Origin: an uncultured Clostridia bacterium
Lineage (GTDB): Bacteria > Bacillota > Clostridia > TANB77 > CAG-508
Assembly (NCBI GenBank): GCA_963558405.1
Contig: CAUWGC010000020.1
Span: 1-25,710 of the forward strand
Direction: 5' to 3'
Length of the DNA: 25,710 bases
Shown piece by piece: positions 3,105 to 25,710 of the stretch. The translations under genes were made by a program, and so were the position numbers. The notes under the pieces were generated by a model, which worked only from the letters and a program-made list of their open reading frames with translations, did not search any database and was not told the DNA's origin. Positions within the stretch are counted from its first letter, which is position 1. Each line of letters starts with the position of its first letter.

Positions 3105-4951
3105 CTTTTTATCCGTTCTTCTACTTCAAATTGTGAATTATATAATTTTTCATAAAATCCTTTTTTATTAAGTAATTCTTCATGTGTACCTTGCTCTACT
3201 ATATCTCCATGATTCATTACTAGTATTAAATCCGCATTTTTTATTGTAGATAATCTGTGTGCAATTATAAAGCTTGTTCTTCCTTCCATTAAATGATCCA
3301 TTGCAGATTGAATTTGTTGTTCTGTTCTAGTATCAATTGAACTTGTAGCTTCATCTAATATTAAAATTTTTGGATTTGCTAAAATTACCCTTGCTATTGT
3401 TAATAATTGTTTTTGTCCTGCTGAAATATTGCTAGACTCTTCATTTATTACAGCATCATATCCATTTGGCAATGTTTTTATATAATGATGTACATGTGCT
3501 GCTTTTGCTGCTTCTATAATTTCTGCATCTGTTGCATCTTGTTTTCCGTATTTAATATTTTCTTTTAAGCTACCACTAAATAGCCATGTATCTTGCAACA
3601 CCATTCCAAACATTTTTCGAAGCTCTCCACGGTCAAAATCTTTAACATCATATCCATCTACTAATATTTTTCCGCTATTTACATCATAAAATCTCATTAA
3701 TAGCTTAACCATTGTAGTTTTACCAGCACCAGTTGGACCTACAATAGCTATTTTTTGTCCTTCTTTTACATCTGCACAAAAGTCATTAATAATAATTCTA
3801 TCTTCATCATATCCAAATTTAACATGATCAAAAACTATATTTCCTTTTAATCCTTCTGTTTTTACAGGTTTTTCTATAGTTTTTACTTCTTCTGGTTCTT
3901 CTAAAAATTTAAATACTCTTTCAGCAGCTGCAATCATACTTTGAATCATTGCAGATACTTGTGCTATTTGCATAATTGGCTGTGTAAATTGCTTGTTATA
4001 TTGAATAAAGCTTTGTATATTTCCTACTGTAATTCTTCCTTGTATTGCTAAATAACCTCCAATAATTGCAACAGCTACATATCCTACATTTCCTATAAAA
4101 TTCATTAATGGATGCATTAAACCAGATAAAAATTGTGATCTCCATGCTGAATGATATAATTGTTTGTTAGCTTTACTAAATTCTTCAATTGCTTCTTTCT
4201 CACCATTAAATGCCTTTACTACAGTATGCCCACCATATATTTCTTCTACTTGACCATTTACATGCCCCAAATAATCTTGTTGAGCAGTGAAATACTTTTG
4301 AGATTTACTTACAATCTTTTTTAATATAAAAGCTGTAATTGGTAATATTATTAAAGATATTAATGTCATTATCCAACTTATTGATAACATCATTACTAAT
4401 ATACCTATAATTGTACATATAGATGTAATAATTTGTGTAACACTTTGATTTAAATTTTGTGATAATGTATCAATATCGTTTGTTATAATAGATAATACTT
4501 CTCCATGCGTTTTTGTGTCAAAATAGTGCATTGGCAATTTATTTATTTTTTTTGCTAAATCGTTACGTAGTTTATATGTTATTTTTTGTACAACTGATGT
4601 CATTGTAAAACCTTGTACAAGTGAAAATATTTGGCTTACAATATATAATCCTAATAATGATAATAAAATAGTTGCAATTTTTCCAAAATCAATTCCGCTT
4701 CCACCTGAAAGTTTACTTACTAATCCGTTAAAAATTTCTGTAGTAGCATTTCCTAAAATTTTAGGTCCTACTACCATAAATACTGTACTTCCTATAGCAA
4801 AAATAATTACTATAAGCAAAGCAATTTTATAATTAGATAAATAATCTTTAATTAATTTTTTTGTAGTGCCTTTAAAATCTTGTGGTTTTTCTACCACTCC
4901 TTTAGCACCTGGTCCCATACCTCCCATTGGAGGTCTAATTTTTTGTGACAT
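3086..4951 (-). CDS. Heterodimeric ABC exporter subunit (fused TMD-NBD; TM288/EfrD-like)
   Basis: TM domain followed by Walker A GPTGAGKT, degenerate signature ISAGQ, Walker B ILILDEAT and switch IAHRL. Confidence 0.93.
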   Translation of the reverse strand: MSQKIRPPMGGMGPGAKGVVEKPQDFKGTTKKLIKDYLSNYKIALLIVIIFAIGSTVFMVVGPKILGNATTEIFNGLVSKLSGGSGIDFGKIATILLSLLGLYIVSQIFSLVQGFTMTSVVQKITYKLRNDLAKKINKLPMHYFDTKTHGEVLSIITNDIDTLSQNLNQSVTQIITSICTIIGILVMMLSISWIMTLISLIILPITAFILKKIVSKSQKYFTAQQDYLGHVNGQVEEIYGGHTVVKAFNGEKEAIEEFSKANKQLYHSAWRSQFLSGLMHPLMNFIGNVGYVAVAIIGGYLAIQGRITVGNIQSFIQYNKQFTQPIMQIAQVSAMIQSMIAAAERVFKFLEEPEEVKTIEKPVKTEGLKGNIVFDHVKFGYDEDRIIINDFCADVKEGQKIAIVGPTGAGKTTMVKLLMRFYDVNSGKILVDGYDVKDFDRGELRKMFGMVLQDTWLFSGSLKENIKYGKQDATDAEIIEAAKAAHVHHYIKTLPNGYDAVINEESSNISAGQKQLLTIARVILANPKILILDEATSSIDTRTEQQIQSAMDHLMEGRTSFIIAHRLSTIKNADLILVMNHGDIVEQGTHEELLNKKGFYEKLYNSQFEVEERIKRKRVPI

Positions 4952-7194
4952 TATTCTAATTCCTCCTTTGAAAGTTGTGATAAGGCAATTTGTTTATAAG
5001 TATCACAATTTTCCATTAATTCTCTATGTGTACCTTTTCCAACAATTTTACCTTCTTCTAATACTATAATTTGGTCTGCATTTAATACTGTACTAATTCT
5101 TTGTGCAACAATAATAACTGTTTTATTTTCAGTTTTTTCTTTTAATGCTGCTCTTAATTTACTATCTGTTTTAAAATCAAGAGCAGAAAAACTATCGTCA
5201 AATACAAATATTTCTGGATCAGTTGCAATAGCTCTTGCAATTGATAAACGTTGCTTTTGTCCTCCTGATACATTGCTTCCTCCTTGTGCTATTGGAGAAT
5301 CATATTTTTCTTCTTTTTCTTCTATAAACTCAGTAGCCTGTGCTATTTTAGCCGCTTCAATCATTCTTTCATCAGACATTTCTGGGTCACCATATTTTAT
5401 ATTTGAGCGGATTGTTCCTGAAAATAACACTCCTTTTTGAGGTACAAAACCTATTTTCTTTCTTAATTCTTCTTGTGATACATCTCTTACATCAACACCA
5501 TCAATTAATAATTCACCACTTGTAACATCATAAAAACGTGGAATTAAATTTACTACAGTTGATTTACCACTTCCAGTACTTCCTATAATAGCAGTTGTAG
5601 TACCTGGTTTAGCTGTAAAAGTAATATCTTCTAATATTTCTGTATCAGCGTCTGGATATCTAAATGATACTTCTTTAAACTCTACTAAACCCTTTTTGCT
5701 ATCATCCCATTGTTTTTTTACTTCTTTATCTTTAATATTAGGCTCTGTTTCTAAAACTTCATTAATACGTTTAGCAGATACTGTAGCACGTGGTAACATA
5801 ATTGAAACCATAGAAATCATTAAAAAGCTCATTACGATTTGCATTGTATATTGTATAAAAGCCATCATATCTCCTACTTGTAAAATTCCTTGGTCTACAT
5901 CATGTCCTCCAACCCAAATAATAAGTAACATTATAGAATTCATTATAAACATTAATGCTGGCATCATTATACTCATAGCACGGTTAACAAATACATTTGT
6001 TTTCATTAACTTTTTATTTGCTTTATCAAAACGTTCTTCTTCGTGTTTTTCTGTGTTAAAAGCTCTTATAACTGGTATACCAGTAAGAATTTCTCTAGAT
6101 ACAAGATTTAGTTTATCAATCAAATCTTGTAATTTTTTAAATTTTGGCATTGCTACTATAAATAAAACTAATACAATAGCTAATATACATAATATTGCAA
6201 GTCCAATAATCCATGCTATAGATGTTTGACTCTTAGTTAATACATGAATAAATCCACCAATACCTATAATTGGAGCATATACTACTACTCTAAAAAGAAT
6301 AGTAATTAATTGTTGTATTTGCTGAATATCATTTGTACTACGTGTAATTAGTGATGCAGTTGAAAATTCCCTAAATTCTTTAGTTGAAAAACTTAATACT
6401 TTCCTAAATACTAAATCCCTTAAAGTTCTTCCAAGCTTTGCAGCTACACGAGAAGATAAAAGCATTATAGTTATAGCTGATGTCATACTTATAAATGCTA
6501 TTCCAAGCATTTGTAGACCTGTAAGTAGTATATAATTGTTTTGTATTTTATCAATATCCATTCCTAATGCTTTGTATTCTTCTTTTACTTCTGATATTGC
6601 CGCTTGTTCTATTATACTTCCCATCATAGTATCTAATTTTTCATTTATTGGTTTTAAAAATTCATCTCTATTTTCTTCTGGCATCTTCTTTATTATATCA
6701 ATTAAGTTCATTTGTTCTAAAATAACTTTTTGTTCGTTTGGAACATTTCCTAACATTTTAGATTTTATCTGTTCTTGTGTATCTGAATTTTCTAATAAAG
6801 ATAATGTCATAAGAGGTCTTGCTATTTTATTATCCAATTCTTCTTGTTCTTCTGATAATTTATCTAATATATAAATTTCTTGATTTTCAAGTTCTGGATA
6901 TTTTTTTACCTCTTTTTCATACTCTTTTTCGGATAAATTTTCTTTAGATAATAAGCTATAATTCTCTAAAATGGATTCATCTTCGTTTGTAAAAATAAGT
7001 AGATTTTCCATTTGCTCTTTTCTAATTGCTTCTGGCGCTACATTTTCTATACCACCTTGTTGTATTCCTATGTTTACAATTTTAGAAGTATAATCTGGTA
7101 AAGCTAAATCTGTTGCAGCTTGTAAACATAAAAGAGCAATAATTGCAATAACACTTACCCATGATTTTTTTAGGTACTTTAATACTTTTAACAT
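4951..7194 (-). CDS. Heterodimeric ABC exporter subunit (fused TMD-NBD; TM287/EfrC-like) with a large extracellular insert
   Basis: Walker A GSTGSGKS, signature VSGGQ, degenerate Walker B FVFDDS and switch VAQR. TAATG stop/start overlap with its partner. Confidence 0.93.
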   Translation of the reverse strand: MLKVLKYLKKSWVSVIAIIALLCLQAATDLALPDYTSKIVNIGIQQGGIENVAPEAIRKEQMENLLIFTNEDESILENYSLLSKENLSEKEYEKEVKKYPELENQEIYILDKLSEEQEELDNKIARPLMTLSLLENSDTQEQIKSKMLGNVPNEQKVILEQMNLIDIIKKMPEENRDEFLKPINEKLDTMMGSIIEQAAISEVKEEYKALGMDIDKIQNNYILLTGLQMLGIAFISMTSAITIMLLSSRVAAKLGRTLRDLVFRKVLSFSTKEFREFSTASLITRSTNDIQQIQQLITILFRVVVYAPIIGIGGFIHVLTKSQTSIAWIIGLAILCILAIVLVLFIVAMPKFKKLQDLIDKLNLVSREILTGIPVIRAFNTEKHEEERFDKANKKLMKTNVFVNRAMSIMMPALMFIMNSIMLLIIWVGGHDVDQGILQVGDMMAFIQYTMQIVMSFLMISMVSIMLPRATVSAKRINEVLETEPNIKDKEVKKQWDDSKKGLVEFKEVSFRYPDADTEILEDITFTAKPGTTTAIIGSTGSGKSTVVNLIPRFYDVTSGELLIDGVDVRDVSQEELRKKIGFVPQKGVLFSGTIRSNIKYGDPEMSDERMIEAAKIAQATEFIEEKEEKYDSPIAQGGSNVSGGQKQRLSIARAIATDPEIFVFDDSFSALDFKTDSKLRAALKEKTENKTVIIVAQRISTVLNADQIIVLEEGKIVGKGTHRELMENCDTYKQIALSQLSKEELE

Positions 7195-7197
7195 TTT

Positions 7198-7813
7198 TTA
7201 TAACTCCACCCTTTCCTTTAAAATTCCATACTTTAAAAAATTTAATGCCTGATAAAACTCTTCTTTTGAAGATTCTATTTTGTTTTCTTTAAAAGTACTT
7301 GCAATAGAACCTCTTAATATTCTATTTAACATTTTAATAATAATTATCAAATCTTCTTCTTTTTTTATTCGTAATTTTTTTACATCAATATATTCTTTAT
7401 ATTTCATTACCTCATAAACAGGTTCTGGTTTTAAACAAAAAAACATATTTTCATTTGCTTTTATATTTTCAAATATCTTTTTATAAAAGTTAATATCTTT
7501 ACCTCTCATACAAGAATTTATCATAAAGTCATATAAACCTTTATATAATTCAAAAATATCTCCGATTACTATTTTTTAATGTTTCTAAAATATATGTATC
7601 AACATCTTTCATTTTTGAATCTATTAAATATAGTAATACATCTTGTTTGCTTTCAAAATATTGATAAAAACTTCCTCTTGCTATTTCTGCATCTTCTACT
7701 ATGTTTTTTATTGATACTTCCTCAATTGGAACACGCGAGAATTCTTTTTTGGCTGATTCAATAATTTTATTTTTTTTATCTTCAGATAGTTTTAAAAAAG
7801 TTTCTGTTGGCAT
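7198..7813 (-). pseudogene. TetR/AcrR-family regulator split by a +1 frameshift (about 204 aa when rejoined)
   Basis: The N-terminal ORF has the TetR HTH (IKNIVEDAEIARGSFYQYFESK). Removing the C at 7564 (AAT-C-GGA-GAT-ATT-TTT) joins it without stops to ORF 7198..7524 via LKNSNGDIFELYKGLYDFM. Confidence 0.85.
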
Positions 7814-23712: not shown

Positions 23713-23758
23713 AAAAAACTGTGTAACTCAAATTTAATTTTGAGTTACACAGTTTTTT
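23713..23758. terminator. Perfect 20-bp inverted repeat terminator closing the pilin transcript
   Basis: AAAAAACTGTGTAACTCAAA-tttaat-TTTGAGTTACACAGTTTTTT. Confidence 0.85.
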
Positions 23759-23865: not shown

Positions 23866-25095
23866 TTATATAGCATCCAGCTTTACATAAAGCATAGGGC
23901 GAAAAGTCCTGTGAACGCCGTTCGCGTAGGCCGGATTGATGTGGTCACGGTAAGAAGCCGGGTTGTAACTACCCCCGTTGTCAAAGCAGCCCCCACGACA
24001 AACTCGGTAGTTAGTGCCGAACGCCTCATTTGTCAATTCCCAAGCATTTCCTGCTAAATCATACATATTCTTTGCTTTCCAATTTTCGTTTGCTCCTGTT
24101 TTTTGTAATTTACCTTTTTCGTATATTCCTCCTCCGGTGTAATCATAATAATTTCCCCATGACTTACTACCATTCACATCATGTTCTGCATCATTTACAA
24201 ATGTCATTATTGCATCCCACTGCACTCCATATATTAATGCGCTTGTTACTCCATATTCTTCACTTGTCTTTGGATACATTCCTCTACTTAACTCTACTGC
24301 TCCTATTATTCCTTCACTATTTGGTGCTGTACTTGTCATACTTGCTCCCCATGGCAAATAATTATATACAAACTTATCCTTTTGTACTAATACCGGATTT
24401 GTTTCTCCTTGTACTGTTGCTTTATTACTATCTGTTCTTTCTATTTCACATCCCGCCTCATATCTTCCTACGTAAAATCCATGGTATTCATATACACTTT
24501 TATACATATCTGCATACTCTGCCTCTCCTGTTTCATCTGCTGATGTTATTCCACTATATGGCTCTGTATAATATGAATCTGGAGATGTTATTGTTCCATC
24601 ATATGTTGTTGTTCTCTTAAACGCCTTTATATCTGTTTCTGTATCTGTTTCCTCTACTTTTACTGGTATCCATACAAACTGGTTTCCTACCAATCCTACT
24701 GTTATATCTCCTGTTTGTCCTGCTTTTACCGCAGCTTTTTCATCATCTGGATGGTCTGATATTACCAATCCTGTTTCTGCTTCTCCTCCTACATAATAAA
24801 ATCCTTTTGGTATTGGTACTCCATTATGGTATTCTTTTATATTTGGATTATCTGGTTTCTCTGGCTCATTCCCTCCAATACCACTTTCTATCTCATTCAT
24901 TGTATTTAACATATTTTGCAACAATTCTTTTTCCTCGCTTGTTGCATTTGACATATTTTGACTTGCTTCTTTTGCTTTGGTGATAATACCATCATTACCT
25001 ACTACCATACTTATTGTTACACCTGCTAATATTATTAGCACTATTATTGTTATAATTAGTGCAACTAGTGTTATACCTTCATTTTTTCTTTTCAT
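23866..25095 (-). CDS. Type IV pilin-like protein with a C-terminal FGE-sulfatase/C-type-lectin-fold domain; probable DGR target
   Basis: Class III-like signal MKRKNEG|ITLVALIITIIVLIILAGVTI, GNQFVWIPV, GFYVGRYEAG and YDLAGNAWE...RGG...R...FRP motifs. GGAGG RBS. Confidence 0.85.
   Translation of the reverse strand: MKRKNEGITLVALIITIIVLIILAGVTISMVVGNDGIITKAKEASQNMSNATSEEKELLQNMLNTMNEIESGIGGNEPEKPDNPNIKEYHNGVPIPKGFYYVGGEAETGLVISDHPDDEKAAVKAGQTGDITVGLVGNQFVWIPVKVEETDTETDIKAFKRTTTYDGTITSPDSYYTEPYSGITSADETGEAEYADMYKSVYEYHGFYVGRYEAGCEIERTDSNKATVQGETNPVLVQKDKFVYNYLPWGASMTSTAPNSEGIIGAVELSRGMYPKTSEEYGVTSALIYGVQWDAIMTFVNDAEHDVNGSKSWGNYYDYTGGGIYEKGKLQKTGANENWKAKNMYDLAGNAWELTNEAFGTNYRVCRGGCFDNGGSYNPASYRDHINPAYANGVHRTFRPMLYVKLDAI
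23881..24030 (-). other. Putative DGR variable region (VR)
   Basis: By hand count, about 56% GC (23891-24030) versus about 34% in the adjacent 140 nt of the same gene. 19 of 37 codons (24021-23911) end in C and only one ends in A. Confidence 0.75.
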
Positions 25096-25180
25096 ACTTT
25101 TTCCTCCGCTTTCTTATTCAGGTTTTTACTTTATCTTTCCCTACCTCGTTCATTTTATACTATATTTTAATCTTTTTGAA

Positions 25181-25234: not shown

Positions 25235-25369
25235 GCTGGAATAAATAATAATTTTTTTATATTTTTTGAAAATTGTGGGGACCGTTTTAGAAAATGTTTG
25301 AACGAAGTGAATTACATTTTCTTAAATGGGGATTCATAAAAATATAAAAAAATTATTATTTATTCCGGC
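25235..25369. repeat. 135-bp nested palindromic element
   Basis: Outer arms GGAATAAATAATAATTTTTTTATATTTTT(A)TGAA (25238-25270 / 25333-25366), inner stem AGAAAATGT/ACATTTTCT and central ACGAAGT. Confidence 0.75.
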
Positions 25370-25404
25370 CCACCTCTAACTTGTATCAGGCACTAAACAT
25401 ACGC

Positions 25405-25436
25405 AAAAAAGACAGACTACACTATATAGTCCATCT
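25405..25436 (-). terminator. Intrinsic terminator in the pilin leader region
   Basis: AGATGGACTATA-TAG-TGTAGTCTGTCT-TTTTT. Three G-U pairs make it specific to the minus strand. Confidence 0.7.
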
Positions 25437-25496
25437 TCACATCTCAAACAAACACAGTTATACTGTGCTTTTATTATTCTATTACTTTCTCTAAAA

Positions 25497-25574
25497 TTAT
25501 TGTGTGTGTGTGTGTGTGTGTGTTACAGCCCCAAGGCTTTTACAGATTTTTCTTTTTTCCATTTTTTCTCTCAT
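25497..25574 (-). CDS. Putative leader peptide MREKMEKRKICKSLGAVTHTHTHTQ containing a (CA)n tract
   Basis: ATG at 25574 (or 25562) just downstream of a promoter. The frame runs through the repeat and stops immediately after it. Confidence 0.5.
   Translation of the reverse strand: MREKMEKRKICKSLGAVTHTHTHTQ
25501..25522. repeat. (TG)11/(CA)11 dinucleotide microsatellite
   Basis: Directly visible; the only long simple repeat in the window. Confidence 0.97.
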
Positions 25575-25600
25575 TTCTTTAGTTCTTGTTCTTTTGTTTA

Positions 25601-25630
25601 ATTTTATATTATTTTATTCTTTATTGTCAA
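25601..25630 (-). promoter_or_regulatory. Sigma-A promoter for the leader/pilin transcript
   Basis: TTGACA (25630-25625), 18 bp, TAAAAT (25606-25601). Confidence 0.55.
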
Positions 25631-25710
25631 TACTAATTTTAATTTTTTGAATCAAGTGTGAAATAAAAAGTTAAATGCAAGTATAAAAAAAATTAATTGC
25701 ATTTAGTGGT

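Follow-up and report, generated by a model that had tools for sequence, protein, structure and literature searches.

The DNA analyzed here is a 25,710-nt stretch from an uncultured Clostridia bacterium (contig CAUWGC010000020.1 of assembly GCA_963558405.1), referred to below as the window, and the subject of this analysis is a gene for a 409-aa protein on its minus strand together with the leader that precedes it. A first-pass annotation had proposed that this leader carries, in order, a promoter, a short open reading frame (ORF) containing (CA)11, a small hairpin and a terminator, and that changes in repeat number switch the downstream gene, which it called a pilin, on or off. Tandem Repeats Finder, ORF listing, a promoter scan and RNAfold bore out this order of parts, with the second hairpin described here as terminator-like, and the following features were assigned.

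25630-25601, minus strand: promoter-like site P1, TTGACA, an 18-nt spacer and TAAAAT, matching 11 of 12 consensus positions; an alternative has a 16-nt spacer to TATAAA
25574..25497, minus strand: leader ORF of the present allele, 25 aa plus TAA at 25499-25497; a second in-frame ATG lies at 25562-25560
25501..25523, minus strand: (CA)11 tract, read as alternating Thr/His codons in the leader ORF; perfect (Tandem Repeats Finder: period 2, 11.5 copies, 100% matches)
25376..25500, minus strand: stretch open only in the long frame (n = 9, 12, 15...), from in silico repeat variants
25468-25452, minus strand: small hairpin between tract and terminator, 7-9 pairs with a 3-nt loop, -9.4 kcal/mol by RNAfold
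25438-25405, minus strand: terminator-like hairpin, with 5′ arm 25438-25425, loop 25424-25422, 3′ arm 25421-25408 and a run of six U ending at 25405; 12-14 bp, -14.4 kcal/mol by RNAfold
25103..25107, minus strand: Shine-Dalgarno sequence GGAGG of the downstream gene, -10.9 kcal/mol
23866..25095, minus strand: presumed regulated gene, encoding a 409-aa protein with a pilin-like N-terminal hydrophobic helix and an FGE-sulfatase-like C-terminal part

The CA repeat, its reading frames and a second locus

The tract is the sole dinucleotide tract in the 25.7 kb and lies far beyond chance, the pattern (CA)5 having seven overlapping matches within it and none elsewhere in the window, compared to 0.01 expected from 100 dinucleotide-preserving shuffles. 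To define the reading frames beyond it, the number of CA units was altered in silico and the position of the stop was read. With the 11 units of the present allele, the stop falls directly past the tract, at 25499-25497 and 58 nt before the stem of the terminator-like hairpin. With 10 units, it falls 8 codons beyond the tract, the frame ending at 25474, 35 nt before the stem, and with 9 or 12 units another 41 codons are read, both hairpins are crossed and the stop (25378-25376) lies 27 nt past the U run. The frame arithmetic given in the first-pass annotation for these four repeat numbers was reproduced exactly. We also observed that the start of the leader ORF (25547-25579) resembles the ribosome-binding site and start region of the gene (25083-25115), with 73% over 33 nt and both stretches A-rich, a likeness that is probably compositional.

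Relatives were sought in 185,579 species genomes, among which 54 stretches matched the pattern and two, termed L001 and L002 and neither of them the source genome, encode relatives of the 409-aa protein, with 30% and 35% identity to it, respectively, by tblastn. The chromosomal contexts of the window, L001 and L002 are mutually unrelated. Searches of phages and plasmids with the 409-aa protein (tblastn) and with the 615-nt leader (blastn) returned no match, and a local tblastn of the three proteins against the window and both loci, which would have detected further paralogs there, found only the three genes themselves. The leader module recurs at L002, where an intergenic region of 300 nt contains the same parts in the same order, including a small hairpin (-6.3 kcal/mol) in a similar location. 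The main L002 features, in the coordinates of that locus, are as follows.

5689-5717, plus strand: promoter, TTGAAC-17-TACAAT, placed as P1 is in the window
5749..5880, plus strand: leader ORF of the present allele, with ATG at 5749 and a strong Shine-Dalgarno sequence, -10.1 kcal/mol
5785-5811, plus strand: CA tract, perfect, 13 units
5865-5880/5885-5900, plus strand: terminator-like hairpin, 16 bp, -21.3 kcal/mol, followed by six U, with the gene 83 nt further on

At L002, the present allele reads in the long frame and its stop codon (5878-5880) falls on the final 3 nt of the 5′ arm of the terminator, where a waiting ribosome would mask that arm; the two remaining frames end 42 and 31 nt short of the stem. 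The L002 leader folds far better than shuffled sequences (z = -6.95, 0 of 200 as good). In naked RNA, its terminator has a pairing probability of 0.98 at every repeat number tried (9-17 units), and the 5′ arm of the window terminator one of 0.96, likewise at every repeat number tried (7-15 units). Because the terminator folds alike at every repeat number, repeat number can matter only through the reading frame and not through RNA folding. A switch operating in the RNA alone was considered as a candidate and rejected, since folding with these ranges of units leaves the terminator unchanged at both loci. A separate structure was predicted within L002 5749-5850, where the start-codon region of the leader would pair just 3′ of the tract and place the whole (CA)13 in a loop, with no equivalent predicted for the window. 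A scan of the window for Rfam families returned none at gathering score, and both leaders match only sub-threshold eukaryotic families.

Apart from the tract, the U run and one short motif, the nucleotide sequences of the window and L002 leaders have no usable similarity. The leader peptides, compared by reading, likewise display no evident similarity in any of the three frames. Since the leaders can barely be aligned, two pure tracts have been kept while their surroundings diverged, and the retention of a tract at the same place relative to an ORF, a terminator and a homologous gene is, in our view, the strongest argument that the repeat is functional.

The downstream protein and its surroundings

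Searched alone, the 409-aa protein has no Pfam match, including to N_methyl, even at E ≤ 10. Its N-terminus consists of a charged stretch, a glycine and then a hydrophobic helix of roughly 20 residues, an arrangement with a positively charged leader as in type IV pilins, and in an alignment of the three homologs the G, I, L, ITIIV and ILA columns of the N-terminal part are invariant. The likeness to pilins is nevertheless weak, with GspG matched at E = 0.16, far below its cut-off, and a profile of the three homologs matching the N-termini of geopilin and MshA at E = 0.024-0.3. A glutamate at position +5 (E5) defines the prepilin cleavage/methylation motif. Counting from the conserved glycine, the three homologs have A, V or S at +5 and in no case glutamate. 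Genes for pilus assembly (ATPase, platform protein, prepilin peptidase) were absent from the 18 window ORFs scanned and from the 36 ORFs around L001 and L002. What stands of the original designation as a pilin is a weak similarity of the N-terminal helix, in a protein that has no N_methyl match and, like its two homologs, no +5 glutamate.

Evidence on the C-terminal part points to a different family. In its C-terminal 60 positions, the three-homolog profile matches human SUMF2 (1y4j; E = 2.2e-5). The L002 homolog matches PF03781 (FGE-sulfatase) at E = 4.1e-6, with 27.1 bits compared to a Pfam cut-off of 23.3. Among the nearest ESM Atlas clusters, FGE-sulfatase is found on 60% of members and N_methyl on 21%. 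AlphaFold2, run on the three-sequence alignment, gave a mean predicted local distance difference test (pLDDT) score of 32.6 and a predicted template modeling (pTM) score of 0.25, with a low-confidence helix at residues 6-32; this model is unusable, and any statement on the fold is accordingly argued from sequence. A fair name for the protein would be one with a pilin-like N-terminal helix plus an FGE-sulfatase-like domain.

Two palindromes flank the gene.

25235..25369, no strand assigned: near-perfect 135-nt palindrome between terminator and gene, with 32-nt arms 97% complementary and inner 16-nt arms 88% complementary; -43.7 kcal/mol as RNA
23713..23758, no strand assigned: perfect palindrome of 23+23 nt with no spacer (scan value 96% complementary), with A and T runs alongside, 107 nt past the stop codon of the gene

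The 135-nt palindrome has no counterpart in L002, no target-site duplication was seen around it, and blastn against plasmids and phages gave no match; a small mobile insertion of the hairpin type is one candidate explanation, and an element governing the stability or processing of the RNA is another. The possibility that it is an invertible promoter was rejected, since its 32-nt inverted repeats enclose only 71 nt that are themselves palindromic, and the whole would form a long hairpin. The palindrome at 23713-23758 is likely a bidirectional terminator that closes a one-gene unit. At the extreme end of the window, just upstream of the leader promoter, there is also a 12-nt inverted repeat (25672-25705, 92% complementary, 10-nt spacer), which could be an operator or could terminate a gene located upstream.

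The window as a whole is ordinary chromosomal DNA of a Clostridia-like bacterium, with a low G+C content of 24-36% and ORFs encoding PolC, glycyl-tRNA synthetase, pyruvate phosphate dikinase, glucose-6-phosphate isomerase, ABC exporters and acyl-CoA ligase. Two adjacent minus-strand ORFs separated by 25 nt make up a TetR-family regulator (TetR_N, 87 aa, 7550-7813; TetR_C_19, 108 aa, 7198-7524), representing either a disrupted gene or an assembly error. A 98-aa minus-strand ORF at 175-471 has a weak match to a MazE/AbrB-type antitoxin fold (E = 1.6e-6), with no adjacent toxin ORF noticed in the window. At L002, radical SAM (137 aa) and SPASM (145 aa) domains are encoded by adjacent same-strand ORFs, 21 nt apart, at 4812-5684, directly upstream of the leader promoter, and this pair may be a split gene.

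A candidate leader-peptide switch and its alternatives

Repeat-switched leader-peptide attenuation has already been shown experimentally for the pil1 and pil3 loci of Streptococcus gallolyticus (Danne et al. 2014, PMC3894217). According to the portions of that paper available, the pil1 operon is preceded by a leader ORF with 22 GCAGA repeats and then a stem-loop terminator, and pil3 is organized likewise, with 13 repeats. When a repeat is gained or lost out of frame, the leader peptide becomes longer and stops within or beyond the terminator, so that the ribosome prevents the hairpin from forming and pilus transcription rises. Isolates in which the leader stop lies at least 28 nt before the terminator are mostly low in expression, and those with a stop at, within or beyond the terminator are high; the legend of Fig. 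6 of the same paper lists start-codon (ATG), stop-codon and terminator-deletion mutants.

On balance, we consider it somewhat probable that the locus in the window is a phase-variable leader-peptide attenuator of the pil1/pil3 kind, controlling one gene for a pilin-like/FGE-like surface protein. The anatomy of the leader, its recurrence at L002 and the streptococcal precedent all argue for the switch that the first-pass annotation had envisaged, in which repeat number acts by way of a leader ORF and a terminator, and from these we infer that the tract is unstable, that the leader is translated, that the terminator is active and that read-through depends on the ribosome. Transcription would start from P1 at about 25595, a ribosome would translate the short leader ORF, and slipped-strand changes in (CA)n would choose one of three frames past the tract. 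In two of these, the ribosome would leave the RNA 35 or 58 nt before the terminator, the hairpin would form and most transcripts would end near 25405, leaving the gene OFF or low. In the third (n = 9, 12, 15...), the ribosome would run over both hairpin arms, termination would fail and the 409-aa gene would be transcribed (ON). The small hairpin is a possible pause site in this sequence of events. The stops of the short frames, which precede the stem by 58 and 35 nt in the window and by 42 and 31 nt at L002, and the course of the long frames fit the stop-position rule of S. gallolyticus, and under the 28-nt limit of that rule the claim that the present n = 11 allele is OFF seems reasonable; it would lie one unit from ON.

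Several observations weigh against this interpretation. Predicted pairing with the anti-Shine-Dalgarno sequence is weak for the window leader, at -1.5 kcal/mol for the first ATG and -6.8 kcal/mol for the second. The terminator-like hairpin of the window has just 3 G-C pairs, and a consensus terminator scan lists neither it nor its L002 equivalent, although the silence of the scan weighs little because the far stronger L002 hairpin was also missed. Taken in its entirety, the window leader is no more stably folded than shuffled sequence (z = -0.98; 39 of 200 shuffles did as well), and 309 nt, including the 135-nt palindrome, separate its terminator from the start codon. As for P1, the leader region contains 9 promoter-like sites compared to 11.7 expected from shuffles, and the argument for this site therefore rests on its position and not on its score. 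The comparison of related leaders for a long frame at the terminator, suggested in the first-pass annotation, came out in favor of the switch at L002, where the (CA)13 long frame ends on the 5′ arm, but not at L001, which has a plain promoter and 5′ untranslated region with no CA tract, leader ORF or terminator. There is a single comparator for the module, and the two tract lengths that can be compared, n = 11 and n = 13, come from two different species.

Nor, in statistical terms, is the frame pattern itself remarkable. When the spacers were shuffled with dinucleotide content preserved (20,000 shuffles), at least one frame reached the stem in 32% of cases for the window and 56% for L002, and one frame to the stem with two stopping at least 28 nt earlier was seen in 24% and 29%, respectively; the joint chance of this pattern at both loci is about 7%, which is not significant. 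Candidate promoters downstream of the terminators, described below, also count against the switch. Finally, transcription-translation coupling is loose in Bacillus subtilis, and in Firmicutes a ribosome would on that account be less able to prevent termination, although the streptococcal example demonstrates that a mechanism of this kind can work in a member of the group. With regard to the weak Shine-Dalgarno pairing, CA repeats just downstream of a start codon enhance translation in Escherichia coli according to the available text of a review (PMC9031893), and such an enhancement could offset it.

The main rival explanation, which we consider unlikely, holds that the leader and the gene are transcribed separately. 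A small unit running from P1 through the short ORF and its tract to the terminator would produce a small peptide or RNA, and the gene would have its own promoter just past the terminator; the repeat would then be without effect on the gene, or would affect it indirectly, via read-through adding to or interfering with that promoter. In keeping with this, a relaxed scan detected at L002 a candidate promoter, TTGCAC-17-TATAAA (or TTTGCA-18-TATAAA), that carries an extended TG and overlaps the terminator end, but the window equivalent is poor (TTTGCG-16-TACAAG, 7/12), and at L002 the strict scan is empty on the plus strand from the terminator to the gene. The 309 nt between the window terminator and the gene offer room for a promoter and contain two 9/12 promoter-like sites, but such sites are equally common in shuffles. 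The two loci are alike around the U run and again about 10 nt further on, in a motif of about 14 nt (window 25380-25415, L002 5893-5935; 39 of 2,000 shuffles reach the local alignment score), a further point in favor of this rival. Conversely, a conserved small protein is unlikely given that the leader peptides are dissimilar in all three frames, and two independent units would leave unexplained why the module is placed directly upstream of homologous genes in two chromosomal contexts.

It is improbable, in our estimation, that the tract acts without any frame logic, as an unstructured CA-rich enhancer or tuner of leader translation or as a protein-binding site, in which case its length would grade expression with no period of three. 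Both the reported effect of CA repeats past a start codon (PMC9031893, in the text available) and the largely unpaired state of the tract, with a mean pairing probability of 0.40 in the window and 0.21 at L002 at present lengths, are consistent with such a role. It would, however, explain neither the terminator that follows the ORF in both loci nor the L002 long frame ending exactly on the terminator arm; predicted terminator folding is independent of tract length, and an enhancer would need no perfect tract of 11-13 units. We regard as very unlikely the view that the tract is a neutral microsatellite without function, surrounded by an ORF and hairpins through coincidence. That the frame pattern is common by chance and the window leader not unusually structured would agree with neutrality, but this is the only dinucleotide tract in the window, where even five units have 0.01 chance matches expected, and a second perfect tract occupies the same relative position in the otherwise unalignable leader of a 35%-identical protein, a divergence over which a neutral repeat would be expected to decay or be interrupted. 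The 11 consecutive Thr/His codons of the present allele also bring to mind an amino-acid-sensing attenuator of the his/thr-leader type, in which the ribosome stalls on these codons when charged tRNA is scarce. We find this extremely improbable, since every frame of a CA repeat encodes Thr/His and the codon content is automatic; moreover, no antiterminator alternative is predicted, the terminator forming with a probability of 0.96-0.98 in naked RNA, a ribosome stalled in the tract would still be 58 nt or more short of the stem, and the downstream gene does not belong to amino acid biosynthesis.

Coupling of the attenuator to a diversity-generating retroelement (DGR) had also been proposed in the first-pass annotation, and on this point the results were negative. 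A reverse transcriptase was found neither among the 18 window ORFs scanned, with the 615 nt upstream of the gene covered, nor among the 36 ORFs around L001 and L002, and the window contains no template repeat of the 3′ end of the gene, with no long repeat seen, blastn (word size 7) giving matches of at most 38 nt and the best ungapped 60-nt match being 37/60. The idea was not unreasonable, because FGE-sulfatase/C-type-lectin is the largest class of DGR targets in the available text of Wu et al. 2018 (PMC5758913), accounting for 71 of 372. By sequence, the C-terminal part of the window protein resembles the FGE-sulfatase family, and a domain of the FGE-sulfatase/C-type-lectin class is C-terminal in targets such as Treponema TvpA. 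Unlike TvpA-type targets, the gene has no reverse transcriptase or template repeat in the window or near its homologs, and the profile matches TvpA at E = 0.3. Nothing found here supports a DGR as a second layer. A broader version, in which the (CA)n attenuator is a family-wide module of pilin-like/FGE-lectin surface proteins of gut Clostridia, with the C-terminal lectin-type domain perhaps diversified in trans where a DGR lies elsewhere in the genome, seems to us a very doubtful proposition. If the family-wide module were real, no contingency loci of the simple-repeat type would have been described for the class Clostridia before these, and if a DGR also acted in trans, random ON/OFF switching and hypervariation would converge on one antigen in a two-layer system.

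Relation to known systems

If the proposed switch is correct, a surface protein of uncultured Clostridia-like bacteria would be made by only part of the population, and n mod 3, taken directly from metagenomic reads, could reveal whether it is ON or OFF. Stochastic switching of surface and signaling genes is known in Clostridia from the invertible promoters of Clostridioides difficile (review PMC11868660), which rely on site-specific inversion; the 135-nt palindrome of the window, in contrast, is hairpin-like and is not a promoter between inverted repeats. The available text of this 2025 phase-variation review contains six mentions of Clostridi*, describing inversions only, with 0 occurrences each of S. 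gallolyticus and of leader peptides, and the window would add simple-repeat switching to the class for which that text describes only DNA inversion.

Two other kinds of regulation share individual elements with the proposed switch. As in the E. coli trp leader, as outlined in the available text of PMC3894217, the position of a ribosome on a leader ORF would decide whether a terminator hairpin forms. The window differs in having no metabolite-sensing codons and no predicted antiterminator, and the variable would be a heritable change of frame and not tRNA charging. A mutable repeat at a surface-protein gene with stochastic, reversible ON/OFF switching is also found in a 5′ untranslated region element of Haemophilus influenzae (PMC12721329) and in a slippage switch of a Bifidobacterium breve pilus (PMC9187656). 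In this class, as far as the available texts describe it, the repeat alters promoter spacing, processing of the untranslated region or the frame of the gene itself, whereas here it would act within a separate leader ORF and leave the gene and its promoter untouched.

The closest parallel is provided by S. gallolyticus pil1 and pil3. From the portions of PMC3894217 available, these loci and the window have in the same order a promoter, a short ORF with ribosome-binding site and ATG, a simple repeat within it whose unit is not divisible by three, a stem-loop terminator, which in the window is a predicted one, and a gene for a surface structure, and in both cases the number of repeats sets the position at which the leader peptide stops. 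The repeats have no sequence relationship, being GCAGA (22 or 13 copies) there and CA (11 or 13) here, and the hosts are a streptococcus, with a sortase-pilus operon, and a low-GC Clostridia-like bacterium, with a single pilin-like/FGE-sulfatase-like gene. In the streptococcal system, adding and removing one repeat both give a long peptide, whereas one of three frames is long here, and that system has been shown by experiment, whereas the switch in the window and at L002 is predicted from sequence. In our literature searches, leader-peptide attenuation switched by a simple repeat was found for S. gallolyticus pil1/pil3 only, and the searches gave no instance from Clostridia or with a dinucleotide repeat. 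The mechanism itself is therefore already known, and what the window contributes is probably its occurrence in a new bacterial class, its use of a new repeat unit and its conservation across two or more divergent genomes. If this is true, the design would be present with a different repeat unit, in a different bacterial class and in two genomes whose proteins are about 35% identical, and would be a recurrent solution and not a streptococcal oddity.

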